Source: an uncultured Gammaproteobacteria bacterium (GTDB taxonomy: Bacteria; Patescibacteriota; Patescibacteriia; UBA9934). From it: a stretch of 64,000 nucleotides of DNA. The stretch spans positions 39,419 through 103,418 of the forward strand of contig CAYHFQ010000001.1 in NCBI GenBank assembly GCA_964355955.1, given 5' to 3'. The position numbers were made by a program, and so were the translations under genes. Of this stretch, positions 7,869 through 44,595 are shown in pieces. The notes beneath the pieces were generated by a model. That model did no database searches and was not told where the DNA came from. It saw only the letters and a program-made list of their open reading frames with translations. How positions within the stretch are numbered: position 1 is the stretch's first letter; each line of letters opens with the position of its first letter.

Positions 7869-7892
7869 TCGAACTCGACGATTAGGCACTAA

Positions 7893-9176: not shown

Positions 9177-9186
9177 GAGTTAGAAA

Positions 9187-9224: not shown

Positions 9225-9242
9225 GTGATAAGATGGCTATAT

Positions 9243-11518: not shown

Positions 11519-11521
11519 AAG

Positions 11522-12598: not shown

Positions 12599-12624
12599 AC
12601 TTTGGTGATAAAATTACTGGCCGA

Positions 12625-12653
12625 AGTGTAGCGGAATTATTGACAAATGCCAA
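12625..12653 (-). promoter_or_regulatory. Sigma70-like promoter of ychF
   Basis: Minus strand reads TTGGCA-17 nt-TACACT, about 25 nt upstream of the ATG. It contains the TTCCGCTACACTTCG 15-mer shared with the rpsT promoter. Confidence 0.5.
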
Positions 12654-12723
12654 GTTTTGAGGTAATTTTTGCGGTTGCCACAACGGCAACAACTCTCCCC
12701 CACCCCTCACAACCGGAGTCTCC

Positions 12724-13920
12724 ATGTCCATGTTCCTTCTCCTCATCTCCTCGCTGGCCCTGGCCACCGATGCGCCGCTCAACTGGATCAAACCGGTCGA
12801 CCCGAACCTGAAGCCGTCCGCCGCGACGGTGGTAGTACTGATCAGCCGAACCCGTGTCGACGAGACCGCGCTCAACAACATCAACAAATGGCAAGCCGAC
12901 GGCTTCCTGCTGCTCGACGGCGAGCAGGCAACGAAGGGCCAGATCCTGGCCGGCCTCAACCAGGCCAAGCAGTACGGCCACGTCATCTTGAACGTGGATG
13001 AGCTGGGCATTGGTGGCGACTTCGGTGACCCGTTCGTGATGCCGTATGGGGCTGTCCCAGACGACGTGAATGGCGTGCTGCGGCCGAGCGAGATCATGAA
13101 GACCGTCCAAGGTAGTCAGGCCTGGGTGGCCGTGATCAGCAACACCATGAACAACGAAGTGACGAGCGGCGGCAAGGAGGCCTTCATCGGGCCCGATGCC
13201 AGCCAGTGGCTCGACGCTGCAGCAGAAGGCAGCAACGTGTTCGTGCTGACGGCTGGTACGTCGCAGAATCTCCCGAGTGCACCGTGCCAGGAGAACTTTG
13301 CTGCCATGCTGTGGGGCAACCTGGCGACACGCTACGCCACTGGCCACGATCTGAGCTTCTACGAGCTCGCGCAGACGGCCAAGGAGTTGACCAACATCAC
13401 GATCGTCAACGTGGTGAGTGGCTCGACCGTTTGCAACTTCACCCCCGAGGCCAAGTACCAGGGCAGCGTGACACCGAAGACGGTCATGCTGATCGGTAGC
13501 GGCGTGTTGCCCGACCCGGTGATCGAGCTGCAACCTGAGTTCACGCCAGTCGATCCAACGATCCCCAAGCTCAGCGTACCGATGACGTCGACACTCAACG
13601 AGGTGAAGCCGAAGTCGCGTTTGCCGAGTGTGATCGGGTTCGCGGCTGGCGGCGGATGCTTGGTCGGAGGTGCGGTCGAGTCCGTGCTATTCCTGAACGG
13701 CGTCAAACAGGCCAAGGAGACCTTCGCTAGTGACAACCTGACCGCCAACTTCAGCAGCGAGGCGGAGATGGACACGGCCTACGACGCTGCCGTGACCAAG
13801 CTCAGTGCGCAAGGCAATACGGCCATCGGGCTGTACGCCTGTGCTGGTCTCGGTGTCGGCCTCGGCACCACTACCCTGTTCCTTTCCGGCCACACGGTCG
13901 GCGTGACCACAGCGTTCTAG
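12724..13920 (+). CDS. Secreted hypothetical protein (signal peptide)
   Basis: N-terminal MSMFLLLISSLALATDAPL signal. GGAG lies upstream. 398 aa, GC-rich. A long antisense ORF is attributed to high GC. Confidence 0.5.
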   Translation: MSMFLLLISSLALATDAPLNWIKPVDPNLKPSAATVVVLISRTRVDETALNNINKWQADGFLLLDGEQATKGQILAGLNQAKQYGHVILNVDELGIGGDFGDPFVMPYGAVPDDVNGVLRPSEIMKTVQGSQAWVAVISNTMNNEVTSGGKEAFIGPDASQWLDAAAEGSNVFVLTAGTSQNLPSAPCQENFAAMLWGNLATRYATGHDLSFYELAQTAKELTNITIVNVVSGSTVCNFTPEAKYQGSVTPKTVMLIGSGVLPDPVIELQPEFTPVDPTIPKLSVPMTSTLNEVKPKSRLPSVIGFAAGGGCLVGGAVESVLFLNGVKQAKETFASDNLTANFSSEAEMDTAYDAAVTKLSAQGNTAIGLYACAGLGVGLGTTTLFLSGHTVGVTTAF

Positions 13921-14001
13921 TTCTCAGCGATGCCAACTGGCGTGCGCTGACAACAAAAGTCCCCTTTCACCGATTGGTGAGAGGGGGCTTCTTCGTTTAG
14001 T

Positions 14002-14031
14002 TCAAGCGGGGCATGGTAACCCCGCCTATTA
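14002..14031. repeat. Palindromic mini-repeat, copy A (intergenic)
   Basis: TCAAGCGGGGCATGGTAACCCCGCCTATTA. Stem GCGGGG/CCCCGC. Near-identical to copies at 16694 and 32010. Confidence 0.8.
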
Positions 14032-16368
14032 AGGGGAGGTCGCTTCGGTCATTGGATCGAGTGGTGGTGGGAGCAGCTTGTCGGCTAAGCCTTGGCGGAG
14101 ACGAGAGAGGCGTGTTTTGACGAGCTCGTTATTTGGGTTGGCGTCGGCCACGGCTTGGACATGAGTTATGGCACCTTCGAGGTCGCCAGCGTTCTCGAGG
14201 ATGGTGGCCAAGTACCAATGAGCATCGGCGTAGTCGGAGCTGATATCGAGAACGCGGAGGAGTTCAGCTTTGGCGAGGTCATTCTTGCCTTGTTTGAGGT
14301 AGAGTAAAGCGAGTTGGACGCCGACACCGACATCGTTTGGATTTGATTTCCGAATAGCTTCGAGGCCCGCAATGGCGTCGGTTAATTTACCTTGGCGCTC
14401 GTAGACGCCGGCCAAGTAGTAGCCAGCCGGAGCATAGTCTGGCTTGAGTTTCTGGGCGGCGAGTAGAGCAGTGAGGGCTGAGTCCAAGGCTGAGAAACGA
14501 ACGAGTGTGGCTTTGGCGGCCAAGTCTTTGTCGGTGCCAGCCATGATGACTGCAGCCCCGTCGGCAGCAGCGAGATAGGCTTGAGCAACGTTGACGAGGT
14601 AACGAGGATTATTGGGAGCGAGTGATTGGGCATTTTGATAGGCAGCGAGTTCGAAAGAAACTGATTCAGGAAGAACTGGTGCGATTTCTTTGTAAGTGTC
14701 ACCGAGAATGACCCAGTTGGCAACGTTGCCACTGGCGAGTTCCGTGGCACGTTTAGCAGCATTGACGCTTGCGCCGACGAGTTGCTGAACGTAGGTTTGG
14801 TCAACGTCTGGCTGCTTCAGAGCAATAGCAGTTTTCTGCAAAAGAATGTGGGCGAGATTGCGATAGTAAATGTCGTTCCAGCGATTAATGACGGCGGCGC
14901 GGTCTAGTGTAGCAATAACGTCATCTGGATTGCCGCCTGTTTGACTGAGGGTGATGGCGCGTTGAAAAGATAGCTCGGCCAAATAGCGAGAACCGGCTAC
15001 GAAGAGTGTAGTGAAGAGGCCGAGGACGACGCAGACGGAGAGGAAGATGGCGACGAGGCCGGTGCGAGGAGATTGGTCAAAAGAAACTTCGTGCAATTTT
15101 TTGACGGAGAGTGAGGCGAGAATGGCAGAGAGAAGCCAGAAGCTGACGGATAAGGTGATGTTTGAGGAGATAAGGAACTGAGCCACGAAGAGCACGAGCC
15201 AAGCAGTGAGTGGTGCAATTATGATAGTTCGATTGGTGGTATGGCGGGAGCTGAAGAGGACGATGATGGCGCCGACCAGAATAGATAAGCAGATGAGCAA
15301 GTAGAAGCTGGTGCTAATGAGGCCGAGTATTGGGAGGAGAGTTAGGAAATACGAGCTGGCCGAGGAGAAAGTAGTGTCCCAGTAAGGTGTGGCGTTGATA
15401 GATGGTGAGTAGTGGGCGGCGTAGTCGAAACCGTAAGTGCCAGCACCGGAGCCGAAGAGGAGATGGTCGTGGAGGGTATTGGTGGCAATAGCGAGGCTAG
15501 CAGATTGAGTTGGGGCGATCTCTGGGGCGAAAGGACTACTGATGGGGCTCGGTAAAATAATAAAGATGAGGCTCAGTCCGAAGAGCAGCATGGGCAGGAC
15601 AAAGCGGCCGTGGTGCTTGAACTCGTTTGTCTTGATGAAGGCGATGAGGAAGAGGGAGCCGAGGCCGACGAGAGTGAGGAGCCAGAGAGGATTGTGGTCG
15701 AGAGCGAGGAGAGTGATGAAAGTTACAAGGGTTGTAATGCTAATAGAGGCGCGGACGATGAGGCCAGAGGGACCGCTCGGCAGTGAGGAGTGTGCGATGT
15801 CGGTTTGATCCGTTAACCAGAGGCCAAGACCGAGGGTCATCATGGCAATAAGATAGACGGCGAAAGTGTTGGCGCCACCGATGAGGGCTGGTATGAACTT
15901 AGCACCAAAGAAAGTTGGGAGAGCGAGCAAGGAAATGAGGGCGCTGCCAATGAGGAGAGCGGAGAGAAGGCGGCGAGTTTGACCCAGGGTTTTCAGAGAC
16001 TCGGCGCCGAGGAAGAAGAGCAGGCCGTACATGGCGAAGCTGAGGACGCTCGTGTATTCCTGCCCAGCTTGGCCCAGTAAGGATAAGTAGGGTGACTCGC
16101 GCAGGCCGGGAGTAATGAGTAGAGCAATGATGAGAAGACCAAAGAGTAAATAACTCCAGTCACGACGTAAACTTAGAGTGCGAGTTTGGATTATAGTGGC
16201 AGTTAAAGAGAGGCTCGCTAGGACGACGATGAGGACGAGGAGAGTTTGTTTAATGAGTTCACGCGGTTCGATGGTGAGGGGTAGATAGAGTAACGGTACG
16301 GCGACGGCCAAAATTAGGAACGCGGCAGACGTCCAGAGTTGGCTCAAACGGGCGAACGAAAATTTCAT
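14029..16368 (-). CDS. O-antigen ligase (Wzy_C)-like polytopic membrane protein with a C-terminal TPR repeat domain
   Basis: About 12 TM helices in the N-terminal two-thirds. TPR-like repeats at the C-terminus (…AQAYLAAADGAAVIMAG…YYLAGVYERQGKLTDA…). Confidence 0.65.
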   Translation of the reverse strand: MKFSFARLSQLWTSAAFLILAVAVPLLYLPLTIEPRELIKQTLLVLIVVLASLSLTATIIQTRTLSLRRDWSYLLFGLLIIALLITPGLRESPYLSLLGQAGQEYTSVLSFAMYGLLFFLGAESLKTLGQTRRLLSALLIGSALISLLALPTFFGAKFIPALIGGANTFAVYLIAMMTLGLGLWLTDQTDIAHSSLPSGPSGLIVRASISITTLVTFITLLALDHNPLWLLTLVGLGSLFLIAFIKTNEFKHHGRFVLPMLLFGLSLIFIILPSPISSPFAPEIAPTQSASLAIATNTLHDHLLFGSGAGTYGFDYAAHYSPSINATPYWDTTFSSASSYFLTLLPILGLISTSFYLLICLSILVGAIIVLFSSRHTTNRTIIIAPLTAWLVLFVAQFLISSNITLSVSFWLLSAILASLSVKKLHEVSFDQSPRTGLVAIFLSVCVVLGLFTTLFVAGSRYLAELSFQRAITLSQTGGNPDDVIATLDRAAVINRWNDIYYRNLAHILLQKTAIALKQPDVDQTYVQQLVGASVNAAKRATELASGNVANWVILGDTYKEIAPVLPESVSFELAAYQNAQSLAPNNPRYLVNVAQAYLAAADGAAVIMAGTDKDLAAKATLVRFSALDSALTALLAAQKLKPDYAPAGYYLAGVYERQGKLTDAIAGLEAIRKSNPNDVGVGVQLALLYLKQGKNDLAKAELLRVLDISSDYADAHWYLATILENAGDLEGAITHVQAVADANPNNELVKTRLSRLRQGLADKLLPPPLDPMTEATSP

Positions 16369-32959: not shown

Positions 32960-33064
32960 AATAGTTGGATTGTACAGGTGGGGGCGATAAAAAAGAAGTG
33001 CGCCCACCCCGAGGTGAGTCGGGAGGGCGCAGGGTGATCTGCGAGGGAATCAGGTGGACGGGGG

Positions 33065-33463
33065 CTAGTCCTCGCCTTCATCGATGACGTGCGCGTCGGG
33101 ATCGCCGAGCGCGACGTCATGAGTCTCTTCCTCCTCCGCCTGGGCGAAGTGCAGCTCGGCGGCAGCCTGGACGCGGGCGTAGAGGTTCTCGTCGTTGATG
33201 GGCGTGAAGGACTCGCCGCCGTCTTCGTCGGCCTCGTAGCGGAAGAGGAAGATCTCCGTGTTCTCGGCGGCGTCGTCCTCGTCGGCTGGCGTCAGGGCGG
33301 CGAACTGGCCCTCACCCTCGAGGTCGACGACTGTCAGGAAGACGAAGTCCTGCTCGTTGCCGTCCGCGTCCTGGAGGGTGACGATGTTGTCGTCATCGCT
33401 GTCGAACTCGTCGTCGAGATCTTCATCGCCGTCGTGATCGAGGCTGGTGGGGTCGATAGGCAT
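33065..33463 (-). CDS. DUF1292-family highly acidic protein
   Basis: …NIVTLQDADGNEQDFVFLTVVDLEGEGQFAALTPADEDD…EIFLFRYEADEDG… matches the DUF1292 pattern (ITLxDEDGNExEFEVL…). Confidence 0.6.
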   Translation of the reverse strand: MPIDPTSLDHDGDEDLDDEFDSDDDNIVTLQDADGNEQDFVFLTVVDLEGEGQFAALTPADEDDAAENTEIFLFRYEADEDGGESFTPINDENLYARVQAAAELHFAQAEEEETHDVALGDPDAHVIDEGED

Positions 33464-33650
33464 GGGGTCATCCTGGTGGTGAGTGCTAAGTGAATCCTAG
33501 CGGCCAGAGCTTACATGATTAACTAGAAAAAGGCTAGGGTTGGGAGTAAAAGAAAAGCGCCGCCCCGACAAGTCGGAGCGGACGCAGATGATCTACGCCG
33601 AGGGCGCGCTGATCAGTGGAGACGCGGTAGGCCGCGGAGGGTTGGCCCGA

Positions 33651-33974
33651 CTAGCCCTGGAGCTCAGTGCCCTGGTCGGTGGTGCCGGTGTCGGTGAGCT
33701 TGAGCTTGGTGTCCGTCGTGCCGTCGTTGGCGTCGGTCGTGGTGCCGTCACCGGTGGTCTCGAGCTCGGTGTCGGCGGTGCCGTCGGTGGACTTGGTCTC
33801 GAGTGCGGGGTCATCACCAGCGGGCTCGCCGACGACCTCGGTGGTCGCCGAGCCGTCGCCGTTGCCGGTCTCAGTGTTGCCGTCGCCGCTCGTGCCCGGG
33901 CCCTCGCCGTCGCCTTCGCCGTCAACGTTGCAATTTCCCTGGAAGCCCAGGAGGAGGATGCTGGTCAGTTTCAT
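33651..33974 (-). CDS. Small secreted Asp/Thr/Gly-rich low-complexity protein
   Basis: N-terminal signal MKLTSILLLGFQG. The region is extremely GC-rich, with long ORFs in several frames, so coding status is uncertain. Confidence 0.3.
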   Translation of the reverse strand: MKLTSILLLGFQGNCNVDGEGDGEGPGTSGDGNTETGNGDGSATTEVVGEPAGDDPALETKSTDGTADTELETTGDGTTTDANDGTTDTKLKLTDTGTTDQGTELQG

Positions 33975-34113
33975 TTGTCTTGGCCCTTTCTTTTTTGTCT
34001 TTTTGGTCGGTTGATGCCCGAGAGAACCTCTGGCGGGGGGAATGGTACAACATTAGCAAAAAAATGTCCAGCCCGACCCCTTTGAGGGCCTGGCTGGACG
34101 AGGGGGACGCCGG

Positions 34114-35088
34114 CTAGAAGGTGCGATCGTCGAGGCTGGGCGGCGCACGGAGAGGCGTGGAAGGCGGCGAGCAAGGGCTCGAATAACTGCCCGGCTGGTG
34201 GTGCTTGGGACGCATTGACCTCTTGCCTGAAGGAGAGGCCAAAGCAGAGCGGGTGATTGACCCCGCATCCAGGTGCAGGTCGCGACGCAAGGTGATGGTG
34301 ATGCGGCGCTTGTCCTGCAAGCCAATCCGGTCCACCCCGGGGACTTCGAGAACACGATCGGGGCCCATGTTGACCATGAACTGAGGGTGTTCCTGCCCGT
34401 GAGCGTCGTAGTACCGAATTCCCTGGTCGGCCAATACCGCCATGAGAGGTTCCTTCTGCTGCCAGCCACGGATCAGGAGTTCGCCGGGCTGACGGGCTCG
34501 GCCTTCGTCTGGCTGGATGAGAGGCCGACCATTGCGAGCTCGATCCAGGAAGACGTCGATGGCGATGACGTGGAAGCGGTCGCCTGCCATGATGGCGAGG
34601 TGGCCGTGACCAGCGTAGAAGGCGGAGAATTCGCCAGGGATGAGGATGACACGTTGCTTTACGCCCTTCAAATTGTTGACGTAGAGCAAGCCGCTCGTCT
34701 GGAAGGAGCGATCGGCCTGGGCACTGGTGCCGTAGTGGCTACCGGGCACTGGGAGTAACTTGTAGAGCAAGCTGGCCTCCAGGTCGGCAATCGACTCCGG
34801 CAGAGCCTCGTGACCGGCCTGGATGGTGACCAGGTAGAAGCGCTTGAGAGCTCGCTTACCGAGATGAATGCCTTCGCAGCGCTCGGTGTAGCCGTCATTC
34901 ACGGGAACACTCGCCGCATCGGTCGAGTAGATGACTCCGCCATCGTGGTGAATGGCGAAGCGGGTGAGGACGTCAGGCCTGATGAGCCGGCTTGGGTCAA
35001 CACGATGTTTACGATAGTGCTCCTCTTGATCCTGCTGGCGACACAGCATGTCAAAAAGATCGAAAAGATGAATTTTCTGCAAATCCAT
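34114..35088 (-). CDS. Hypothetical protein, possibly a divergent calcineurin-like metallophosphoesterase
   Basis: Ordered His/Asp-containing motifs (IHHDGG … AGHE … AGHGH … IRGW … AHGQEH) loosely follow metallophosphatase motif order. Very GC-rich. The C-terminal 40 aa look like read-through. Confidence 0.35.
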   Translation of the reverse strand: MDLQKIHLFDLFDMLCRQQDQEEHYRKHRVDPSRLIRPDVLTRFAIHHDGGVIYSTDAASVPVNDGYTERCEGIHLGKRALKRFYLVTIQAGHEALPESIADLEASLLYKLLPVPGSHYGTSAQADRSFQTSGLLYVNNLKGVKQRVILIPGEFSAFYAGHGHLAIMAGDRFHVIAIDVFLDRARNGRPLIQPDEGRARQPGELLIRGWQQKEPLMAVLADQGIRYYDAHGQEHPQFMVNMGPDRVLEVPGVDRIGLQDKRRITITLRRDLHLDAGSITRSALASPSGKRSMRPKHHQPGSYSSPCSPPSTPLRAPPSLDDRTF

Positions 35089-35397
35089 GAGCTTGTACCT
35101 GGGGTGGAGGGTTGTATTCGTTACCGGCTCAAAATGATACCGACGACGGACTAAGCTAATGTGCCTGAGATTAGAGGCTTAGTCAATAATTTTGTGGCCT
35201 TGGGTTTGCTATTTATGCAAAATTACGCTATATTTTTGGCGGGAAATGCATAGTAGCAGCCTGAGGACTTTCAGATTTGAGACTAGTTTCGATGAACGTC
35301 GAGCAAAGCTCCTGAGGCGTATAGTAGTCTATACGGTGAAGGAGTTTGCGATGACGTGAGTCGAAAATAGGCCAAATATGGAAGGCCGAGTAAACGA

Positions 35398-35474
35398 GCT
35401 CCGATAGCTCAGTTGGATAGAGCAGGGGACTTCTAAGCCCAAGGTCGATGGTTCGATTCCATCTCGGAGCACCA
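35398..35474 (+). tRNA. tRNA-Arg (anticodon TCT)
   Basis: Acceptor GCTCCGA/TCGGAGC. D-arm GCTC-AGTTGGATA-GAGC. Anticodon loop CTTCTAA. T-arm GATGG-TTCGATT-CCATC. CCA is encoded. Two mismatches in the anticodon stem. Confidence 0.75.
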
Positions 35475-35477
35475 AAA

Positions 35478-35516
35478 ACACCTCGTCAATGTGACGGGGT
35501 GGTTTTGTTTTTGACT
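35478..35516 (+). terminator. Rho-independent terminator after tRNA-Arg(TCT)
   Basis: ACCTCGTCAatgTGACGGGGT followed by GGTTTTGTTTTTG. Confidence 0.55.
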
Positions 35517-35586
35517 TTTTCTGTTGTTTTAGCTATATTTTTGTGGTCTTGGCCAAATTACTGGAAGATATACACATGGAGTCAAC

Positions 35587-35874
35587 ATGGAAGAAAAGAG
35601 CCAGGTGAAAGAGTTGCTCGGCGACATCATGTTCGTGGTGGTGGGAATGGGAGTACTACTTGCCGCGTTGGTCGACATACCAATATTCCCGTACTGGCAG
35701 CCTGCTTTCAAATGGCTGTGTCTTCTAGTGTCACTGGTAATGATGGTGATTGTTCTTGTGCGGTTCCATAAAAAGCGCGCAATGGGGCTACCACTTTCAC
35801 CGTGGACATTTCTTTTGTACTGGGTCGGACAAGCGCTGTGTATTTTCGGCATGATGATACACCTCTGGGACTGA
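35587..35874 (+). CDS. Small hypothetical membrane protein (3 predicted TM)
   Basis: 95-aa ORF with three hydrophobic stretches. AT-rich. Confidence 0.35.
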   Translation: MEEKSQVKELLGDIMFVVVGMGVLLAALVDIPIFPYWQPAFKWLCLLVSLVMMVIVLVRFHKKRAMGLPLSPWTFLLYWVGQALCIFGMMIHLWD

Positions 35875-36006
35875 CTGCCCGACTCGGCGACGAATTTCTG
35901 CCCCTGCTGACCTCGGTCGGTGGGGGCGTCCTCTTTTTTATCGATTAATGGCTGGTGGCTTGCTAATTTAATGGTTTTCGGTTATTATTTTCCCGCAAAC
36001 GAGCAT

Positions 36007-36082
36007 GGTGCCTATAGCACAGTGGTTAGTGCACCGGGTTGTGGTCCCGGCTACGAGGGTCCGATTCCCTCTAGGCACCCCA
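36007..36082 (+). tRNA. tRNA-His (anticodon GTG) with an encoded G-1
   Basis: Acceptor GTGCCTA/TAGGCAC with an extra 5' G pairing with discriminator C73. Anticodon stem-loop CCGGG-TTGTGGT-CCCGG. T-arm GAGGG-TCCGATT-CCCTC. CCA is encoded. Confidence 0.85.
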
Positions 36083-36089
36083 GCAGAGA

Positions 36090-36118
36090 ACCCTCCGTAA
36101 TTGGAGGGTTTTTGCTTT
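36090..36118 (+). terminator. Rho-independent terminator after tRNA-His
   Basis: GAACCCTCCgtaattGGAGGGTTTTTGC. Confidence 0.65.
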
Positions 36119-36155
36119 AGCTAGAACTTCCTCGATGATCGCAAATGTGATAGTT

Positions 36156-36941
36156 CTAGGATTTAAATGAATACGGCTGGCCCTGGTTGAACAGGGTGTT
36201 AAAGGTGGCTTTGAAGGAGTCCGCGATGCCGGGGTGAGTGATGGTGACGACCAAGTTGGTTTGCGGGAAGAGATATGCGAGGGTGGAGCCGTACATGATG
36301 GTGAGGCCTTGGAAGGGTAAGGCGGATTCGGGATAGGTGCGGACGCTAATTTGGCGCTGTTGGAGTAAGGCGAGGTTGATGGGCGAAATGAGGGTGTTGG
36401 GGATTTGGGTGGCTTCAGCAGTGAGGATGAGTTTGGTGGCGATTTTACGGGCGATGATTTTAGAGAAAAAATTGTTTGTCTCCGTGTTGCTTAAGAGAGT
36501 CAGCTCGCTGTTTAAAGCTGTGGCGCCTTCAATGACGTAGAAAGTTGAACCTTCCGGGAGGGAAGAGATTTCATCGTAAACTTTGAAGTAGCCGGCGCGA
36601 GATTCGCTGACTTGGACGCGGGGCGCTTCAACTTCAATTTTTTGGAGGACTTCCAACTGCGGCACGAGGCTTTTAAAGTCCGTGGTTAGGCGGTCAAAGC
36701 GGGCAGCGAGTGTGGCTGGCGGCGTGGCGGTGTAAAGGAGGGTGCGGCCGTGGTTAGATTCGACGACGAGTTCTTTGGCGAGGAGCTTTTTGAGGTGAAA
36801 ATGCGTAGCGGTGCGGTTTTTTTTGATTTTGCTAGCAATATCAGAGACGCCAGCTGTGCCCAGTTTGAGTAAAGCGAGGTAAATGTCGGCTTCGTCAGCG
36901 GTGACGGAGAAGTAACTTAGGAGTTCTTTGGGATTGGTCAT
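36156..36941 (-). CDS. TrmB-family transcriptional regulator (copy 1)
   Basis: N-terminal wHTH (…SVTADEADIYLALLKLGTAGVSDIASKIKKNRTATHFHLKKLLAKELV…) plus a TrmB-like C-terminal domain. The first ATG is at 36941; the maximal ORF starts at a TTG at 36977. Confidence 0.65.
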   Translation of the reverse strand: MTNPKELLSYFSVTADEADIYLALLKLGTAGVSDIASKIKKNRTATHFHLKKLLAKELVVESNHGRTLLYTATPPATLAARFDRLTTDFKSLVPQLEVLQKIEVEAPRVQVSESRAGYFKVYDEISSLPEGSTFYVIEGATALNSELTLLSNTETNNFFSKIIARKIATKLILTAEATQIPNTLISPINLALLQQRQISVRTYPESALPFQGLTIMYGSTLAYLFPQTNLVVTITHPGIADSFKATFNTLFNQGQPYSFKS

Positions 36942-37067
36942 ATGGGTTATATTAGACTGAAACTGGCATTTTGTCAACTATTTTAATCATCAAATTATAC
37001 CTTATTTATTGAATAATCTAGTTATTTATAAACTTATGCACATTATTGTTGACGAAAGAGGTAAAAA

Positions 37068-37850
37068 ATGGTATTGTATGTAGTCGAGCAGGGAATGGCC
37101 CGGTTCGACAAACAACCACAAGACACGGAGACTACCATGCGAATCCTCATCATCGACGACACCCCCGCCAACCTCAAGGCCGCCGAACAGACCCTCGCTG
37201 GCCACCAGCTGACGTTGGTTGGTAGCTACGACGATGCATACAAGCTGCTCGAGGAGCCTTCTGCCGACTACAAGGAAGTGGAGGCAGAGTTGAAGAGACT
37301 CGGCTACAACCGGCGTCCTGACCTCAGCCAGGAAGAAAAAAACGCCTTCCAAAAGGAGCAGGCGCGGCTTGAGAAGGAGCTGCGACCGGCTGGGAACTTC
37401 GATGTCGTGTTGTGCGACATGATGATGCCAGCTGGTAAGCGAATCCAGGTGTCGAATGACCTGGTCGGGCAGTTGATGCCGGTCGGCTTTGCCTTGGTAC
37501 TCGACGCCGTGTTGCATGGCGCCAAATACGTCGGCATGCTGACCGACGGCGACCACCACAACCACCCTGCGGTCGCCTGGATTGATCGCCTGTCCAGCTA
37601 TCACGGATGGAGTGATGATCCGTACAAGTGCCCGGCACGCTTCATCGTGAACGGAGCGACGGTCGGGTACTTCCGCGGTCAAAATACCTTCCTGGTGGAG
37701 GGAGAAACGTGCGAAAAATGCAAAGGCACTCGGATTGATGACAACAGTGAGTTTGCAGGGCCGCCAGTTTGCTACGCCTGCACCGCCGATGGCAAGGTTC
37801 GTGCGAAGGATTGGGGGAAGGTACTCAAGCGGCTGCTCGGCGAAGGGTAG
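37068..37850 (+). CDS. Atypical CheY-like receiver-domain protein with a C-terminal Cys4 zinc-ribbon-like region
   Basis: MRILIIDDTPANLKAAEQ… (DD pair), DVVLCDMMMP (phospho-acceptor Asp context), and a C-terminal CEKCKG…CYAC. GC-rich. RBS AAGAGG lies before 37068. There is no output domain of known type. Confidence 0.55.
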   Translation: MVLYVVEQGMARFDKQPQDTETTMRILIIDDTPANLKAAEQTLAGHQLTLVGSYDDAYKLLEEPSADYKEVEAELKRLGYNRRPDLSQEEKNAFQKEQARLEKELRPAGNFDVVLCDMMMPAGKRIQVSNDLVGQLMPVGFALVLDAVLHGAKYVGMLTDGDHHNHPAVAWIDRLSSYHGWSDDPYKCPARFIVNGATVGYFRGQNTFLVEGETCEKCKGTRIDDNSEFAGPPVCYACTADGKVRAKDWGKVLKRLLGEG

Positions 37851-37977
37851 AGGCAAACAATACATTAACAACTTTCCTTGGCGTGAGTAGCACTCGCTCG
37901 CGCCCAGCATCGAGACGCCGAGCTGTTCGGCGGATCGACACTGATAACAATGCAACCAACGAACTACGGAGTCAGCC

Positions 37978-39486
37978 ATGACCATGAACGTCGCCTTTGT
38001 TTCCCCTCAGCGCCAGGTCGATGCCATTCACGAGCCACCCCGCGGTGGGGTGCAGATCGGGCCGGCCTTGATGGCCTCGCTGCTCAATGGATATTACCTC
38101 GACGAGTCCGTCCGCAACGGCGGATGGCAGCGGCGTGAGCTCTGCGTTCGCACGCTGTGGCCAGGTGAGCGTGGCATCCACGAGACGCCGCTCAACCGCA
38201 CGTGGGGGGAAGTGCATGAGGAGAAGATGTACGACTTCCACAAGCTGTCGTCGACTGACTTCATCAGGAAGTACTCGGCGTTCAGGGAAGATGGCCGCGT
38301 GCAGCGCATCATCGCGCGGATCGGAATTCCGGAAGAGGAAACGATCCAGCACTTGCGCGACCTCCGCGTCGAGGCGGTCGGCATCCCCTTGGCGGCGTCG
38401 GCCAACTACCTGGCGGCCACGTCGCTCGGCAGGCGGATCAAGCGCGAGCTCGGCATCCGAGTGGTGATGGGTGGCCAGCACATCACGGCGGATCCTGAAC
38501 AGTTCGTCCGCGACAATCCGTGGGTCGACCACGTCGCGCAGGGCGACGCCATCACGACCATCGAGGACATGATGGCCGGCCGGGCAACGAGCAAGATTGT
38601 GAAGGGAGGATTCCAGAAGATGGAGGAATACCCAATCATGAACTGCGAGTTGTTGGCCGATGCTGGCTACTCGACTCCACCGACGCACAACTACCCCTCG
38701 GGGTTGAAGTCGATTGACTGGATGGCCAGTCGTGGGTGCTACCGTCATTGCGAATTCTGCTTTGCCGGGCGTCCGGAGCAGAAAGTCACGCAGTCTGGTT
38801 GGGACAAGATCCGACAGCAGCTCGACCACTTTGTGGCCTATGGCTACCAGGAGATTGTGCTGCAAGACGACGCGATTCTCTCTCGCCCGAAGGAGTTCTT
38901 CATTCCTTTGCTCGGGGAGATGAAGCAGCGCGGACTCTCGTGGTCAGACAACGGTGGCGTGGAGTTCGAGAGCCTGTCGGATGAGGTCACCGCGGCCATC
39001 ATGGCGTACAACGATGGCGGGTCGGGCGAGTGTTTCTCGCTGTACGTGCCGTTCAATCCGCGGCAGGGAAATGAGAAGCAGAGCTCGGCAGGGTCGATGA
39101 CCACGAAGTACGAGAACAGCAAGGAGAACCTGAAAAAGCTGCGCTCGGCGGGAGTGTACGTGTTGACGAGCATCATGGTCGGTACACCAGACCAGACACA
39201 CGAGACGTTCGCGGAAGACATGGCTGCTTCCAGGAAGTTGATCGTGGATGGGTACCTCGACTCGGCGCTGCCGTTGTCCGCCACCATGCTGCCCGGCACC
39301 AGGTGGTTCGAACGCAACGGCCACAACATCGTCCACCAGGACGACTGGGCAGGCTACAACCTGTTCAGCACCCACCACAACACCAACGACATGACTGCTC
39401 GTAAGATCGAGGAGGGCATGGTCCGGTGGGTGAAGGAGTCAGGCGACGTGCAGACGATCGAGGCCTGGCAGTGTGCCTTTGCGTAA
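37978..39486 (+). CDS. B12-binding-domain radical SAM enzyme (class B-like)
   Basis: Radical SAM cluster motif CYRHCEFC (CxxxCxxC) preceded by SRG. An N-terminal Rossmann-like B12-binding-type region (…VVMGGQHITADPEQF…). RBS GGAG is present. GC-rich. Confidence 0.75.
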   Translation: MTMNVAFVSPQRQVDAIHEPPRGGVQIGPALMASLLNGYYLDESVRNGGWQRRELCVRTLWPGERGIHETPLNRTWGEVHEEKMYDFHKLSSTDFIRKYSAFREDGRVQRIIARIGIPEEETIQHLRDLRVEAVGIPLAASANYLAATSLGRRIKRELGIRVVMGGQHITADPEQFVRDNPWVDHVAQGDAITTIEDMMAGRATSKIVKGGFQKMEEYPIMNCELLADAGYSTPPTHNYPSGLKSIDWMASRGCYRHCEFCFAGRPEQKVTQSGWDKIRQQLDHFVAYGYQEIVLQDDAILSRPKEFFIPLLGEMKQRGLSWSDNGGVEFESLSDEVTAAIMAYNDGGSGECFSLYVPFNPRQGNEKQSSAGSMTTKYENSKENLKKLRSAGVYVLTSIMVGTPDQTHETFAEDMAASRKLIVDGYLDSALPLSATMLPGTRWFERNGHNIVHQDDWAGYNLFSTHHNTNDMTARKIEEGMVRWVKESGDVQTIEAWQCAFA

Positions 39487-39518
39487 ACAATTCAACCATT
39501 AGGAGGATTAAACTATCG

Positions 39519-39565
39519 AGTAAAACTCACCGCTCACTGAGCCGCTGCTCAGTGAGCGGCTCTTT
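39519..39565 (+). terminator. Rho-independent terminator after the radical SAM gene
   Basis: CCGCTCACTGAGCcgctGCTCAGTGAGCGG (13-bp stem) followed by CTCTTTGTTTT. Confidence 0.7.
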
Positions 39566-39573
39566 GTTTTGAT

Positions 39574-39617
39574 CAATGTTTACAGACAAGGGACGAAGTT
39601 CGACGTCGTCCTGGGAG
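39574..39617. repeat. Direct repeat DR1 with an internal hairpin (GGACGA…TCGTCC), left flank of the kinase cassette
   Basis: CAATGTTTACAGACAAGGGACGAAGTTCGACGTCGTCCTGGGAG. About 40 of 44 nt are identical to DR2 at 40638-40680. Confidence 0.7.
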
Positions 39618-39667
39618 TTGGCATTGCTAACAAAAATTGTCATTTTGATATACTGTATTGGTTATCT

Positions 39668-40630
39668 ATGGATGCAATACATCAGAAAAATATCGACGCC
39701 CTGACTGAGCTCATCCGATCTGGAGAAATGGGGGAGTCGCTGACCTCATCAACTCCGAATATATCATTTTTTAGAACGGGAGGCGGCAATTATTTATACC
39801 TTATCGAACTTGGTACCGCAAAATATCTAGCGCGGGTTAATTATTATTTTTTGAAGAATGAGTGGGGTGCAAAGGAACACGAGTTCCAAACCCTAAAAAT
39901 GATAGAAGGGCTCGGTATTGCACCTCGCGCTCATTATCTTGATGCAGGTAACGGTTTGTTTGGTCAGCAATTCATTATCGTTGATTTTATCGAGGGAAAT
40001 CCTGTGAACAAAATTGGCGATTCCCACGTCATTAATCTTGCGTCGATATTAAGAACATTACACACTAACGTCCCATTTAAAAAATCAGGTAATACGTTTC
40101 CGCCAAATGATAGCCTGCCATATACCTGTGATATTTTTGACGAATTTGCTGATGGCGAAGACAAACAAATTGAGAAGTACAGAAATCTCGAAGGTATTGA
40201 AGGTATTATCGAACCATACACGCGCCTTCTAAAGGCGTTGGGAGACTGGTTTCACTCCTTAACCTGCTTTAATGATTGCCGCACGTTTTGCCTGTGCCAC
40301 GCGGATTTGAAAAAGGAAAATATACTTGAAACTCCGGATGACAATATTTTCCTCATCGATTGGGAATATGCGGGTTCAGATATACCTGAAACGGACATTG
40401 GTCGGCTATTTTCCGGATGTGACTTCACTGAAAAACAGCAGGAATTATTCTTTTCATACTATTTCACTAGTTCGCCAGATGAAAAAACTCTGGAACGCAT
40501 CATGAGTGTTAAGATGGTTCTCGATTTCTTCCGGATTATTGAGGATTATATTCTGCTCAAGAGGAAAAGCTGGGATGCAGAAGCTATGCTTGGTGAACTT
40601 CTGGCGTTCGAGGATAATTTCACTAGTTGA
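39668..40630 (+). CDS. Choline/ethanolamine-kinase-like phosphotransferase (APH/ChoK family, LicA-like)
   Basis: Brenner motif CHADLKKENIL and LIDWEYAGSDIPETDIGRLF, as in LicA-type choline kinases and APH enzymes. AT-rich compared with its flanks. Confidence 0.7.
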   Translation: MDAIHQKNIDALTELIRSGEMGESLTSSTPNISFFRTGGGNYLYLIELGTAKYLARVNYYFLKNEWGAKEHEFQTLKMIEGLGIAPRAHYLDAGNGLFGQQFIIVDFIEGNPVNKIGDSHVINLASILRTLHTNVPFKKSGNTFPPNDSLPYTCDIFDEFADGEDKQIEKYRNLEGIEGIIEPYTRLLKALGDWFHSLTCFNDCRTFCLCHADLKKENILETPDDNIFLIDWEYAGSDIPETDIGRLFSGCDFTEKQQELFFSYYFTSSPDEKTLERIMSVKMVLDFFRIIEDYILLKRKSWDAEAMLGELLAFEDNFTS

Positions 40631-40637
40631 GATGGGC

Positions 40638-40680
40638 CAATGTTTGCAGGCAAGGGACGAAGTCCGACGTCGTCCTGAGG
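40638..40680. repeat. Direct repeat DR2, right flank of the kinase cassette
   Basis: CAATGTTTGCAGGCAAGGGACGAAGTCCGACGTCGTCCTGAGG. Same hairpin core as DR1, followed by TTTTATAC. It may also act as a bidirectional terminator. Confidence 0.7.
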
Positions 40681-40682
40681 TT

Positions 40683-41459
40683 TTATACACTCTGTGTCCA
40701 CAGCGCGGCGAAGATGCTGCGGAGCATGGCCACGATGTATTCGTCTTCCACGAGGACGGCCAGCGGGGCTTTGGGCTGCCAGATGATGACCTTGTTGGCG
40801 TAGAGCATGAAGCCGGTGACGAAGGGGAGGGTGCCTTGGAAGATACGCGTGGTGCGCATTTGGAGTTTGTCGTTTTGTTCGAGTTTGGCAGCGTCGGCGC
40901 CAGGAGTGAGGAGGGAATTCATGTGAATGTTTTTGCTGGTACGGATACGGATCCATTCGAGTTCGGTTTCCCAGGAAATGAGGCCGATGAAGGCGTCGGC
41001 AGAACCGAAGAAGTCGATTTTGTCTTTGGCTTCGTCCAATACTTTGAAAAAGATTTTATTCCACTGATCTTCACCTTCGTAAACTTTTATTTTAGTGGGA
41101 GTTTCGCCCTGGTGGTAGAGCGCGAGTAAATCTGGCATGGAGCCGACGAGGGTTTGATCAAGGCTCTCCATGGCGGCACGTTTTTTACGTAATTGCTCCA
41201 AGACGACGGTTGGCGGCTCCACCACAAAGGTGCGGGACTGCTTTTTACGCTGTGAAAACTTGGTTAAACCATGCTTTTCTAGCCCAGCAATGACTTTGTA
41301 GACGTTGGGCCGTGGCATGCTCAAATGCTCCGCTAACGAGACGATGGTGACGGAACCGAGTGTCAAGGAAGTGAGGTAGAGGTTAGCTTCGCTTTCGGTT
41401 AAACCGAGTTCTTTGAGGGAAGTGTAGAGATTTTGTTTCACCTCGGTATTAGAAAGCAT
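40683..41459 (-). CDS. TrmB-family transcriptional regulator (copy 2)
   Basis: N-terminal wHTH (…LTESEANLYLTSLTLGSVTIVSLAEHLSMPRPNVYKVIAGLEKHGL…) plus a TrmB-like C-terminal domain. Confidence 0.65.
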   Translation of the reverse strand: MLSNTEVKQNLYTSLKELGLTESEANLYLTSLTLGSVTIVSLAEHLSMPRPNVYKVIAGLEKHGLTKFSQRKKQSRTFVVEPPTVVLEQLRKKRAAMESLDQTLVGSMPDLLALYHQGETPTKIKVYEGEDQWNKIFFKVLDEAKDKIDFFGSADAFIGLISWETELEWIRIRTSKNIHMNSLLTPGADAAKLEQNDKLQMRTTRIFQGTLPFVTGFMLYANKVIIWQPKAPLAVLVEDEYIVAMLRSIFAALWTQSV

Positions 41460-41599
41460 AGCGATTTGCTAGTTATTTGTGTTTATAGCGTATATTTTTA
41501 TTATACATTGTTAGTAAATAGAGCGCAAATATATTGACTTTAGTGTATATTTCTGGTATTCTATTTGGTCAGTGACGTTGCTAATAAGAACCAATAGCT

Positions 41600-43051
41600 A
41601 TGAAGAAGTTCAAGAAAGTTGTGGTACTCGATACAGTCATCTTCTACCCCGAGCATCGTGCGCTGTTGAATAAACTGGCGGAGGAGGTGTTGGAGTTTCC
41701 ATCGAGTTTACCGGAGAGGTTAGAGCAGCAGTTTAGTGAACAGCCAGAGTTGTTCGCTGAGACTAAGTGTTATACCGAGCTCGGGGCGAATAACACGCCG
41801 CTGCAACTTTTGATGAATAGGGTTGAGGGCGCTGAGGTGATTATTAGTTGTTGGACGAATATTCCTGATGAGATTTTAAGATTGAACCCGCAATTGAAGC
41901 TGGTTATTTTTTGGACGCATGAGAAGGAGCATAGGATTAATGTCGAGTTGGCGCGAGAGTTGGGGATTGAGGTTAAGAATATTCCGGACTACGGCACCGA
42001 AGCTGTAGCTGAAGTTGTGTTTGCCGGTTTGTGGCAATTGCTGATGAGAAATTATGCGAGTGATGGCTCGGCCGATAAAAAAGATGGGCTAAAGAACTCG
42101 ATTGTGAATGATGTGTTTAGTCGCATTAGACTGCTGCCGGAGAACGAGAAGAATACGCGACTAGGGAAGTTTAGCCATCACTTCCATAAATTAGGACAAG
42201 TGAAGTTCGACTTCGATAAGAAGAATCTGGAGCAACTTATTCCGGAGCGGATGATCGAACATAAACAGATTGGCCTGATGAATATTGAAAAAATCGATGA
42301 GACCGTGAAGGTACTAAGAACGTTCGGCGTGATCGTCGAAGAGAAAATGATCAACGATTTTACGCTGGCGTCGACCTATAAGTTTTTAAGCGAGAACGAA
42401 ATTGTTTATCGCGATAAACGATTAGTGGCGAAGAGCGAAGTCGATAAAATTGAGCAGATGTGGCCAGGGAAGTTGGTTGACGTTAATTCTCTTGTTAAAT
42501 CAGATTACGAGTTCGCCGATAAAGTTTTTGGGCTAGTGGGCCTAGGAAGAATTGGCGAGCAGGTGGCGAGGATAGCGAAGGGCCTGGGGTTCGAGGTTAT
42601 CTACTATTCGAAGCGGCGTAATGAAGTAATCGAAGAGAGGCTCGGTATTAAATATAATGAGATTGATGAACTAGCAAGAGTGAGTGATGTCATTTCACTT
42701 CATGTGCCAGCGCATAAGGCTGAGAATGTGATCGATAAAAAATTCATCGATGAGATGAAGGCTGGCGCGCTGTTCATTAATACGGCGGATGGGAATGCGG
42801 TTGACCAAGTGGCTCTCACCGAACGGATGATGAAGCGAGAGATATTCGCTTATCTAGATGTTTATCCCGGCTTGCCGAGGAAAGATATTTTGGGGCTGCC
42901 GATGATAGATAAGAAAGATTGGAAACTGCATAAGGCGCTAGCAAATAATGTGCTGGCGTACAGGGCAGGTTGGAAGACGCAGGAGTCGATTAGAGTCAAA
43001 ACTTATAAACTGTTAGGCGAGATGACGAGTTATTTAATGAACGATAAATAA
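41600..43051 (+). CDS. D-isomer-specific 2-hydroxyacid dehydrogenase-family protein with a ~150-aa insertion
   Basis: NAD-binding GLVGLGRIGEQVA (GxGxxG), SLHVP and INTADG motifs of the 2-Hacid_dh_C family. An N-terminal catalytic lobe and an extra insert (…RNYASDGSADKKDG…). Confidence 0.7.
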   Translation: MKKFKKVVVLDTVIFYPEHRALLNKLAEEVLEFPSSLPERLEQQFSEQPELFAETKCYTELGANNTPLQLLMNRVEGAEVIISCWTNIPDEILRLNPQLKLVIFWTHEKEHRINVELARELGIEVKNIPDYGTEAVAEVVFAGLWQLLMRNYASDGSADKKDGLKNSIVNDVFSRIRLLPENEKNTRLGKFSHHFHKLGQVKFDFDKKNLEQLIPERMIEHKQIGLMNIEKIDETVKVLRTFGVIVEEKMINDFTLASTYKFLSENEIVYRDKRLVAKSEVDKIEQMWPGKLVDVNSLVKSDYEFADKVFGLVGLGRIGEQVARIAKGLGFEVIYYSKRRNEVIEERLGIKYNEIDELARVSDVISLHVPAHKAENVIDKKFIDEMKAGALFINTADGNAVDQVALTERMMKREIFAYLDVYPGLPRKDILGLPMIDKKDWKLHKALANNVLAYRAGWKTQESIRVKTYKLLGEMTSYLMNDK

Positions 43052-43056
43052 ATTCT

Positions 43057-44595
43057 ATGATTAATGAACAAGAAAAGACGACCCGCACGAAGTTCAACTT
43101 CCTCAAGAAATATTACGATGAAACGTGGGATGAGGCGGCGCATACGCTGCATGTTGGTTTATTTAAGAAGGAAACGGATTCCCTCTCCACAGCCTACAAA
43201 CAGGCGACTGAACATCTCTTAGCCAATATTGAAACAATTGCGCCGATAAGCAAGAGCTCGATCGTGCTCGATGTTGGTTGTGGTACGGGAAAGACGTTAA
43301 TTGAGTTGTGCGCGAAGTTTGGCTGCAGCGGCGTCGGCGTCGACTTAAGCGATGAGCAGATTAAGGATGCTAAGATTTATGTGCGCGAGTTGAATGCTGA
43401 ACGAATGGCCAAAAAGTTGCCGAAGCTACTGGTTAAGTTTGTTCGGGCAAGTGCCAGCGAACTGAGCCAAGTGTTTGCCAAGGATGAACAGTTTAGCCAT
43501 GTGATCAGCCAGGACGCGATCATGTTGGTGGCGGACAAGCAGGCGTTGTACGAGAACGTGTACCGTTTGTTAGCACCAGGTGGCGTGTTCGCCGTGGCCG
43601 ACTTTTTGGCGCAGGCGGCGCAGAGTGAATTGACCACGACGGAGCATGACTTGGTGTACAAGATGGTCAATTGGAATGAGGGTTTCTCGTTTAAGGTGTA
43701 CCAGCAGATCTTGCAGGCGACTGGCTTGAACGTGGTTAAGGCTGAGCAACGTGACCAAGATATGATTTGGACGTATGCCAAGCTGGCTAAAAAGATGAAG
43801 GCGCACGAGAATAAGGCGGACGGAACTTACACCGAGCTGAAAAACCGTTACGAGGGAATTGTTAGTGCAATTGAGAACGGCAAGATGGGTTGGGGCTTTT
43901 TCTTCGCCCAGAAGCCGGTGAGAAAAACTGCTTTGATTGCGGGAACCAAAACAAAGTCTATTGGTCGCTTTGTAGCTGTAGCTTTGCACAAGTTGGGCTA
44001 TGAGATTTATTTGTATGGCCGGAGTGCGAAGACTGTCGATAAGGCTGGTTGGCACGAACGAGCTTGTGATATCAGCAACGAAAAGAGTATCAGTAAGTTA
44101 TTAAACGAGGTGCAAAGTTTGGACTTAGTGCTAATGTTTGCTGATGCCGAGGGCGGACACGGAACCATCGAAGAGCTGACTAAGGAGGGAGTTGAGAGCT
44201 GTTTTGGCGCGAAGTTAGTAGGCAGTGTCTTACTGACGAAGGCGATTGTGCAGAAGTTCAAGAACCGCCAGACGCCGATTCAGATGATTTGGGGTGCGGG
44301 TGGCGTCAGCGATAAGCCGAAAGACTTAATAATTTATGGGCTGATTAATAATGGCTTGGCGGCGTTCGTCAAAGAACTTAATCGTCACTACCATAATATA
44401 GTCGAGGCGTTCTACTTGCCGTTTACCGTCATCTCACCGTCTACGCTCGGTGATGCTTACATTAAACAAGTTGGACCACAACTACAAAAAATGGCTAAGC
44501 ATCCAAGCACAATCGTCGACACGATCATGGGTGTGATTGGGAAGCAGGTAATGCAGGGGGGGGGAATGATAGTGATAGAAAGTAAGGTAATTTAG
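43057..44595 (+). CDS. Fusion protein: class I SAM-dependent methyltransferase (CFA-synthase-like) plus a C-terminal SDR-like Rossmann domain
   Basis: Motif I VLDVGCGTGKTLIEL. The C-terminal half carries IAGTKTKSIGRFVA (TGxxxGxG-like) with a YxxxK-type context. The fusion architecture is unusual. Confidence 0.6.
   Translation: MINEQEKTTRTKFNFLKKYYDETWDEAAHTLHVGLFKKETDSLSTAYKQATEHLLANIETIAPISKSSIVLDVGCGTGKTLIELCAKFGCSGVGVDLSDEQIKDAKIYVRELNAERMAKKLPKLLVKFVRASASELSQVFAKDEQFSHVISQDAIMLVADKQALYENVYRLLAPGGVFAVADFLAQAAQSELTTTEHDLVYKMVNWNEGFSFKVYQQILQATGLNVVKAEQRDQDMIWTYAKLAKKMKAHENKADGTYTELKNRYEGIVSAIENGKMGWGFFFAQKPVRKTALIAGTKTKSIGRFVAVALHKLGYEIYLYGRSAKTVDKAGWHERACDISNEKSISKLLNEVQSLDLVLMFADAEGGHGTIEELTKEGVESCFGAKLVGSVLLTKAIVQKFKNRQTPIQMIWGAGGVSDKPKDLIIYGLINNGLAAFVKELNRHYHNIVEAFYLPFTVISPSTLGDAYIKQVGPQLQKMAKHPSTIVDTIMGVIGKQVMQGGGMIVIESKVI

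Follow-up and report, generated by a model that had tools for sequence, protein, structure and literature searches.

Among the closest described relatives of the enzyme considered here are the class B radical S-adenosylmethionine (SAM) methyltransferases TokK, CysS, TsrM and QCMT/MgmA, in which an N-terminal Rossmann-like B12 domain is followed by a TIM-barrel radical SAM core with a single CxxxCxxC cluster. TsrM, the tryptophan 2-C-methyltransferase of thiostrepton synthesis, uses this fold on free L-tryptophan. Second, auxiliary or self-resistance tryptophanyl-tRNA synthetases (TrpRS) are known as TrpRS II of Deinococcus radiodurans and from the indolmycin and chuangxinmycin clusters; the last of these reportedly appears in papers in which a radical SAM enzyme and a TrpRS are both mentioned. 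A gene for an enzyme of this general type lies at 37978-39486 of the 64-kb stretch of contig CAYHFQ010000001.1 (the window, meaning the whole stretch), in a genome of Candidatus Uhrbacteria, members of the Candidate Phyla Radiation (CPR); the nearest genome matches are metagenome-assembled genomes of that group, and a 1.09-Mb contig encodes the identical protein. Comparison of this locus with its relatives identifies a regulator and the radical SAM gene as the conserved unit, and a receiver-like gene between them as strain-specific cargo; operons of free-living bacteria point to tryptophan or Trp-tRNA as the enzyme's target.

A sequence-only reading of the window had described a GC-rich module of two genes, one for a receiver-domain protein with a zinc ribbon and one for the radical SAM enzyme, with TrmB regulators on both sides. 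Both open reading frames (ORFs) are present, at 37068-37850 (plus strand, 260 residues) and 37978-39486 (plus strand, 502 residues), and their composition is as claimed: GC content is 60.8% for the radical SAM gene and 58.5% for the receiver gene, against 51.5% for the window (third-position GC, or GC3, of 0.82 and 0.74), while the two TrmB genes stand at 51-52% and a kinase-like gene downstream at 41%. The B12-binding-type N-terminal domain and the CYRHCEFC cluster attributed to the second protein were likewise recovered, by PF02310 (37.7 bits, cut-off 32.1) and PF04055 (38.8 bits, cut-off 29.5). The proposal that the two genes form a functional module fared differently, as described below.

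The radical SAM family and its regulators

The cysteines of CYRHCEFC (C254, C258 and C261) are the only invariant cysteines of the family; the window protein has seven in all, scattered along its length. Fifty-five close homologues were found. A profile search of 1.84 billion representative proteins returned about 15 full-length clusters at 50% identity, beyond which scores drop to the generic background of B12-type radical SAM proteins, without the N-terminal 100 residues. Thirty-eight residues are invariant over the members from CPR bacteria, DPANN archaea and free-living bacteria, and the N-terminal domain contains an insertion, specific to the family, of about 65 residues (about residues 43-110). 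The named B12-type radical SAM families in NCBIfam (HpnJ, BchE, PhpK, KedN5, Sden_1168 and the C-methyltransferases of ribosomally made peptides) match poorly, the best at 39 bits against a cut-off of 575 and the others at 17-32 bits against 251-700, which supports the earlier reading in so far as the enzyme falls outside every characterised family (overall, 17-39 bits against cut-offs of 250-700). On these comparisons the family is small, discrete, uncharacterised and class-B-like.

The AlphaFold2 model of the enzyme has a mean predicted local distance difference test score (pLDDT) of 93.8, and Foldseek matches it to MgmA/QCMT, AprD4, TokK, CysS and TsrM, and more distantly to MiaB and RimO. 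By sequence profile the best match in the PDB is the B12-dependent methylase TokK, at E 6e-12 over the region of the cobalamin domain; an alignment to the cobalamin-domain region of TokK at E 1.4e-5 was also recorded. The C-terminal part gave no match to the SPASM/twitch auxiliary-cluster domain (PF13186) and holds no further invariant cysteine. In a neighbour-joining tree the free-living members form a clade nested inside the CPR and DPANN diversity; their identity is 52-57% with DPANN members and 41% with the window protein.

The earlier reading had noted no substrate gene near the enzyme, and none, whether for a precursor peptide or otherwise, came to light. When ORFs of 15-75 residues around the radical SAM gene were clustered over the family loci, with duplicate contigs omitted, a search for a conserved precursor peptide yielded merely out-of-frame shadows of conserved genes, and for a small ORF between 37850 and 37978 the ATG at 37950 is not conserved in the closest relative. 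Because no characterised family matches and no substrate gene or precursor peptide lies nearby, the enzyme is truly undescribed. A literature search found nothing on this family, on TrmB regulators in the CPR, or on a linkage of radical SAM, TrpRS and YbaK genes.

What accompanies the gene most regularly is a regulator. Loci fetched for comparison are numbered with the prefix L, of which L001-L003 are copies of the window's own strain. The neighbouring ORFs of 47 family loci were clustered, 34 of the loci being informative upstream. A divergent TrmB lies directly upstream of the radical SAM gene in 12 CPR genomes (besides the window, L004-L006, L016-L019, L029, L032, L039 and L040), and these TrmB proteins are mutual best matches across CPR phyla. 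Sixteen DPANN loci have instead a tandem Lrp/AsnC-type regulator of 320 residues in the upstream position, bringing the loci with an adjoining regulator to 28 of the 34. Homology between the two regulator types was tried and rejected (hhalign, 29% probability); since their likeness ends at the winged helix-turn-helix, they are non-orthologous replacements of one another. From these neighbourhoods, the conserved unit is a divergent winged-helix regulator with the radical SAM gene, kept with non-orthologous regulators.

The presence of TrmB genes on both sides (36156-36941 and 40683-41459) was seen correctly in the sequence-only reading, PF01978 scoring above its cut-off in both (44.6 bits against 25.6 for the second). 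The impression of bracketing does not hold. The downstream TrmB, 95-96% identical in L006 and L016, remains there with its own divergent operon, comprising a 2-hydroxyacid dehydrogenase and a methyltransferase fused to a short-chain dehydrogenase/reductase (SDR); because of this the arrangement is best described as a pair of neighbouring but independent regulator-target units, each of them divergent, and the second TrmB would control the operon next to it.

Two further arrangements were seen around family members. A Nanoarchaeota contig (L050) carries two radical SAM family genes in tandem, at about 6354-9326. A HEPN/nucleotidyltransferase pair of the MNT-HEPN type stands directly downstream of the radical SAM gene in two separate DPANN lineages (L007-L009, 9600-10677; L050), and such a pair also occurs near the radical SAM gene of Limnospira (L069, 391-1495).

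The variable slot, its control region and the receiver-like protein

The closest relative of the locus is L016, with a radical SAM protein 91% identical to that of the window. The two sequences are homologous over 36177-37139 and over 37866-39573, and hold different genes between these limits (37139/37866): in L016 the slot contains an ORF of 133 residues that is unrelated to the receiver and matches no family. In three other Uhrbacteria (L006, L017 and L018) the slot is empty, and the same promoter and 5' untranslated region (UTR) lead straight to the radical SAM gene. A tblastn search of the radical SAM loci assembled up to then found the receiver in L001-L003 alone, and none of four contexts examined for receiver homologues elsewhere has a radical SAM family gene beside it. 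The supposed two-gene module thus fails in the synteny comparison that the sequence-only reading had itself proposed. On the evidence of gene order, the receiver is strain-specific, exchangeable cargo in a variable slot and not a conserved partner of the radical SAM enzyme. Joint horizontal acquisition of the two genes, as their common GC-richness might be taken to indicate, was considered and rejected: since GC3 is just as high (0.82-0.85) where a radical SAM orthologue has no receiver beside it, the high GC common to both genes is not evidence of joint acquisition. One receiver homologue (L012) is also found downstream of a divergent TrmB.

The AT-rich region between the TrmB gene and the slot aligns across five Uhrbacteria genomes (the window, L006, L016, L017 and L018). 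We infer from its sequence that the back-to-back sigma-70-like elements within it act as functional promoters or operators; no inverted repeat of at least 8 nt that could serve as an operator was found in 36930-37140. The plus-strand promoter, which is conserved, overlaps the annotated receiver ATG at 37068, and stop codons interrupt the reading frame equivalent to that start in both L006 and L016. The homology between the window and L016 stops exactly at a second ATG, at 37137, which is preceded by the GGAG ribosome-binding site (RBS); nearly all receiver homologues begin with MKILVIDD, and the AlphaFold2 model of the annotated form is disordered over its first 20 residues. For these reasons the true receiver coding sequence is most likely 37137-37850, of 237 residues.

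Because the receiver gene sits between the promoter with its 5' UTR and the radical SAM gene, from which it is separated by 127 nt, the two genes are probably co-transcribed in this strain up to the terminator behind the radical SAM gene. The gap between them includes a leader with two adjacent, stable hairpins (37880-37904 and 37905-37943) that lack a U-tract. The counterpart in L016 (about 7893-7968) has the same two-hairpin architecture with pairing maintained (folding z-scores of -2.9 in the window and -4.5 in L016), and the leader is missing from L006, L017 and L018, the relatives without a slot gene. The hairpins could be a processing or stability element, or they could mark the recombination boundary of the exchangeable gene. 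A metagenome scan for further copies of the leader gave one chance match, which lies in an unrelated GC-rich organism, within its gene for a LolD-like ABC ATPase. An Rfam search of the window from 33000 to 42000 recovered two tRNAs and no riboswitch or T-box.

The protein in the slot scores 22.5-22.8 bits against Pfam Response_reg, under the cut-off of 30.2, and its AlphaFold2 model (pLDDT 85.7) matches REC domains weakly in Foldseek (probability 0.99, E about 1e-2, TM-score about 0.5). The family is small, with 22 clusters among 5.8 billion proteins. An alignment of 22 homologues shows that the active-site quintet (D30/D31, D117, T/S159 and K247) is conserved, and D31, D117, H163, H164, D173, K247 and W249 are invariant. 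The earlier description therefore stands as regards the acidic pair, the phospho-acceptor D117 in DVVLCDMMMP, a genuine four-cysteine motif (C215, C218, C235 and C238) and the lack of an output domain, for which the Pfam and NCBIfam scans gave no match; the ribbon is not C-terminal, however. It is a variable CxxC...CxxC insertion ahead of the last helix, which bears the conserved GKDWG, and roughly every second member of the aligned family has it (about 10 of 22, as read from the alignment). A helical insertion in the same alignment is also variable. No histidine kinase gene adjoins the receiver among the ORFs and Pfam matches of the window. The invariant His-His pair (H163/H164 in the annotated numbering; 37623-37628 in the window) and D173 follow strand 4; foreign to ordinary receiver domains, these residues hint at a metal or catalytic site.

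Operons of free-living bacteria and the choice among explanations

Clues to the function of the radical SAM enzyme come from its orthologues in seven free-living genomes: three of Paenibacillus (L035, L036 and L044), L071, L073, one of Limnospira (L069/L070) and one of Prosthecochloris (L049). A YbaK-type tRNA_edit protein and a transporter adjoin the radical SAM gene in all seven, and a TrpRS paralogue does so in every genome except that of Prosthecochloris (6/7). The TrpRS paralogues score 206-277 bits against TIGR00233 (trpS; cut-off 177), and that of Limnospira is of the D. radiodurans TrpRS II type (PDB 2A4M, E 3e-127). The transporter is either a TrpX-like ABC system (NF041285, 326 bits, just under the cut-off of 390) or a Na+ symporter. 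The regulators found beside DPANN members, for their part, belong to the amino-acid-sensing Lrp/AsnC family. Because these operons carry TrpRS, YbaK-type and transporter genes, and because the DPANN regulators are of an amino-acid-sensing type, we propose with moderate confidence that the target of the enzyme is tryptophan or Trp-tRNA and that the modification is probably a methylation, the latter by analogy with class B enzymes.

The Paenibacillus clusters also hold a hydrolase, a thioester-reductase-like enzyme, a second B12-type radical SAM protein and an adenylating enzyme, so that the set extends into a larger, biosynthetic-looking cluster; in Limnospira it lies amid defence and toxin-antitoxin genes. 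Directly after the operon of radical SAM, TrpRS, YbaK and ABC transporter genes in L071, 6666-7802 holds a group II intron (Rfam RF02001, 153 bits) together with a fragment of a phage-type integrase, which suggests that this operon is carried on a mobile element.

The explanation that we favour, and to which we would give about an even chance, is of a regulator-gated unit with a B12-type radical SAM enzyme that acts on tryptophan and a receiver that is exchangeable cargo. It is built from gene content, synteny, slot replacement, promoter conservation, family boundaries and operon associations, all of which were observed directly. The TrmB and radical SAM genes would share the AT-rich control region with its back-to-back promoters, and the receiver-like gene in the slot would be read with the radical SAM gene as far as the terminator. 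The single-cluster, class-B-like enzyme, most likely a cobalamin-dependent C-methyltransferase, would act on tryptophan that is free or esterified to tRNA-Trp, and its expression would be gated by a ligand-sensing regulator because its product would be an amino-acid analogue. A more specific version, which we regard as quite improbable, would have the enzyme methylate or otherwise modify tryptophan esterified to tRNA-Trp, with, in free-living bacteria, a dedicated TrpRS II-type enzyme supplying the substrate and a YbaK-type deacylase releasing or proofreading the product; in CPR and DPANN cells, where the radical SAM gene alone is kept under a ligand-gated regulator, the modified Trp-tRNA or the freed analogue might then enter translation or serve as a tryptophan antimetabolite against the host.

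Several considerations weigh against this explanation. TrmB regulators are classically sugar-responsive, not amino-acid-responsive, and cobalamin synthesis is not expected in CPR and DPANN organisms. The 64-kb window holds neither a TrpRS paralogue nor a YbaK-like gene, and none was seen in the CPR and DPANN loci examined, so that the window enzyme shares with the free-living operons the radical SAM component alone and its connection to tryptophan depends on an orthologous relationship at 41% identity. Ahead of the Paenibacillus operons there is no T-box or other RNA element specific for tryptophan, and none was found at gathering or E<0.5 thresholds in the Paenibacillus, Prosthecochloris, L071 and L073 loci. 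Co-transcription is read from the sequence. The highest global TM-score of the enzyme model, 0.65, is to AprD4, so cobalamin binding is a prediction; AprD4 shares the radical SAM/B12-type fold without binding cobalamin (PMC12931638), and because AprD4-like proteins have the fold without the cofactor, cobalamin use by the window enzyme likewise stays a prediction.

The last points lead directly to a different view of the enzyme, as a radical enzyme, similar to AprD4 or ArsL, that needs no cobalamin and has a degenerate Rossmann domain; its substrate would be some unrelated small molecule, for instance a sugar, a lipid head-group or a cofactor. The AprD4 superposition (TMq 0.65) and the sugar-responsiveness typical of TrmB regulators favour it, as do lipid- and kinase-type genes scattered near some CPR loci (PAP2 in L004; genes of the aminoglycoside phosphotransferase, or APH, type in the window and L005) and the occurrence of cobalamin-free AprD4-like enzymes within the similarity networks of B12-type radical SAM proteins (PMC12931638). 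We nonetheless consider it improbable: PF02310 matches above its cut-off, TokK is the top PDB profile match whereas AprD4 is not detected by profile at all, the neighbouring CPR genes are not conserved, and tryptophan and tRNA genes recur consistently in the free-living operons. Unlikely too, if somewhat less easily set aside, is modification of a macromolecule of translation (tRNA, rRNA, a ribosomal or other protein) in the manner of MiaB, RimO, Mmp10 or QCMT, the TrpRS and YbaK neighbours then reflecting tRNA-Trp. The linkage to aminoacyl-tRNA synthetase and editing genes is compatible with such a role, Foldseek matches MgmA/QCMT, MiaB and RimO at E 1e-11 to 1e-13, and the family is kept in minimal CPR and DPANN genomes that are dominated by translation-related functions. 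The enzyme has no TRAM domain and no second cysteine cluster, however, and has no conserved N-terminal cysteines such as the three-cysteine cluster of the UPF0004 domain in MiaB and RimO, whose NCBIfam models score 20-24 bits against 251-355; the distribution of the family is patchy, at about 15 clusters, and the amino-acid-type transporters of the free-living operons point to a small molecule.

Finally, the receiver-like protein and the radical SAM enzyme might constitute a dedicated two-gene signalling or modification system after all, for example with a phosphorylated receiver that activates or targets the enzyme. The shared promoter and terminator and the 127-nt spacing in this strain would fit, as would the retention of all five canonical residues of the phospho-acceptor site and the position of the L012 homologue behind a divergent TrmB. 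Synteny largely refutes the idea: among the radical SAM loci searched the receiver is restricted to copies of one strain, the slot of L016 is filled by an unrelated ORF and that of three other relatives by nothing, and the four receiver contexts have no radical SAM gene. We judge such a system highly improbable.

Surrounding genes, significance and comparison with known systems

The features of the locus and the operons of free-living bacteria are collected below.

Table 1. Features of the radical SAM locus (window coordinates) and operons used for comparison (coordinates of each L-numbered locus).
Feature	Position	Strand	Remarks
TrmB-family winged-helix regulator, conserved divergent partner of the radical SAM gene	36156-36941	-	PF01978, 36.5 bits against cut-off of 25.6
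Divergent control region	36942-37136	.	two back-to-back putative promoters, 5' UTR, GGAG RBS at 37127-37130; AT-rich
TrmB promoter (predicted)	TTGACA 36977-36972, N17, TAATAT to 36949	-	consensus scan
Slot/radical SAM promoter (predicted)	TTGACG 37049-37054, N17, extended -10 TGnTATTGT 37069-37077	+	consensus scan
Receiver-like protein, divergent, single-domain	37137-37850 (annotated 37068-37850)	+	237 residues by the revised start; helical and Cys4 ribbon insertions
Intercistronic leader, 112 nt	37866-37977	+	common to window and L016 (blastn block starts at 37866); radical SAM RBS GGAG at 37968-37971
B12-binding-domain radical SAM enzyme	37978-39486	+	N-terminal Rossmann-like domain; radical SAM core with CxxxCxxC at 38737-38760
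Intrinsic terminator	39530-39570	+	13-bp GC-rich stem, 4-nt loop, T-rich tail; 3' of the radical SAM gene
Operons of free-living bacteria	L069/L070 7920-12633; L071 448-6244; L073 7086-18408; L035/L036/L044 about 8000-15700; L049 1425-9407

The region as a whole is made up, patchwork-like, of TrmB-target units, and these vary from strain to strain. Upstream of the first TrmB gene, tRNA-Arg(TCT) (35398-35474) and tRNA-His(GTG) (36008-36082) flank an orphan ORF of 95 residues (35587-35874); the same tRNA-flanked position is occupied in three relatives by another divergent TrmB with a radical SAM protein of 337 residues that is weakly MoaA-like (L006 5039-6974, L016 4345-6281 and L018 4294-about 6200). 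Farther upstream, 33540-35088 has a GC content of 60-67% and long ORFs on both strands, including a D/G/T-rich low-complexity ORF (33651-33974, minus strand) and one of 324 residues without a Pfam match, and the gene calls of relatives disagree on the coding strand. Downstream of the radical SAM terminator, in this strain only, lies an AT-rich gene (39668-40630, 41% GC) of the APH/choline-kinase family, whose best NCBIfam match, far under the cut-off, is the guanitoxin kinase GntI; in L016 a toxin-antitoxin pair, Phd/YefM-PemK (MazF-like), takes this position (9632-10274). The second TrmB, within 40683-44595, is transcribed divergently from a 2-hydroxyacid dehydrogenase of 483 residues with a long N-terminal extension, followed by a SAM-methyltransferase/SDR fusion of 512 residues; the TrmB and dehydrogenase genes keep their synteny in L006, L016 and L040, with high conservation.

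It should be emphasized that the radical SAM protein is a new member of a known enzyme class, and that its significance lies in its family and not in the pairing with the receiver, which is not worth pursuing as a module because the juxtaposition is strain-specific. The family has repeatedly been exchanged between CPR bacteria and DPANN archaea, under a dedicated regulator, and a regulator-gated radical SAM enzyme is notable in genomes of about 1 Mb that must scavenge SAM precursors and cobalamin. The linkage to TrpRS II and trans-editing genes in culturable Paenibacillus and Limnospira provides a testable entry: it could reveal a new tryptophan-modifying radical enzyme, and could also bear on the long-unclear role of auxiliary TrpRS II proteins.

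How the parts of the locus stand in relation to described systems can be set out briefly. The regulator resembles TrmB and TrmBL proteins in its N-terminal TrmB winged helix-turn-helix (PF01978), in its length of about 260 residues, as in TrmBL2, and in being divergent from its target gene; the classical members are archaeal sugar regulators, whereas here a CPR bacterium has many paralogues, each paired with a target gene of its own. In the receiver-like protein the acidic pair, phospho-acceptor Asp, Thr/Ser and Lys of single-domain CheY-like response regulators are in place, and like them it has no output domain, but it differs in its sub-cut-off receiver score, its invariant His-His and its variable helical and zinc-ribbon insertions.

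Auxiliary and self-resistance TrpRS systems offer a parallel in that the free-living radical SAM orthologues adjoin a second TrpRS; the window is without such a paralogue, and no combination with a YbaK-type protein turned up in the literature searched. AprD4, a radical SAM diol dehydratase that does without cobalamin, superposes best over the whole structure (TMq 0.65, TMt 0.72) but is undetected by sequence profile, and acts on an aminoglycoside in a biosynthetic cluster. With TokK, CysS, TsrM and QCMT/MgmA, the enzyme has in common the domain order and single cluster described at the outset, and all are Foldseek matches at E 1e-9 to 1e-13; it differs from them in sequence (11-18% identity) and by its own N-terminal insertion of about 65 residues, and from TokK and TsrM in a short C-terminal region without their C-terminal domain. 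TsrM itself is not the closest relative (PDB profile E 0.15) and its gene belongs to a thiopeptide cluster rather than lying next to TrpRS and YbaK genes; even so, it matches the model at a Foldseek E of 2e-9, and its use of a B12-binding radical SAM fold on free L-tryptophan is the type of reaction that the window enzyme is proposed to carry out.

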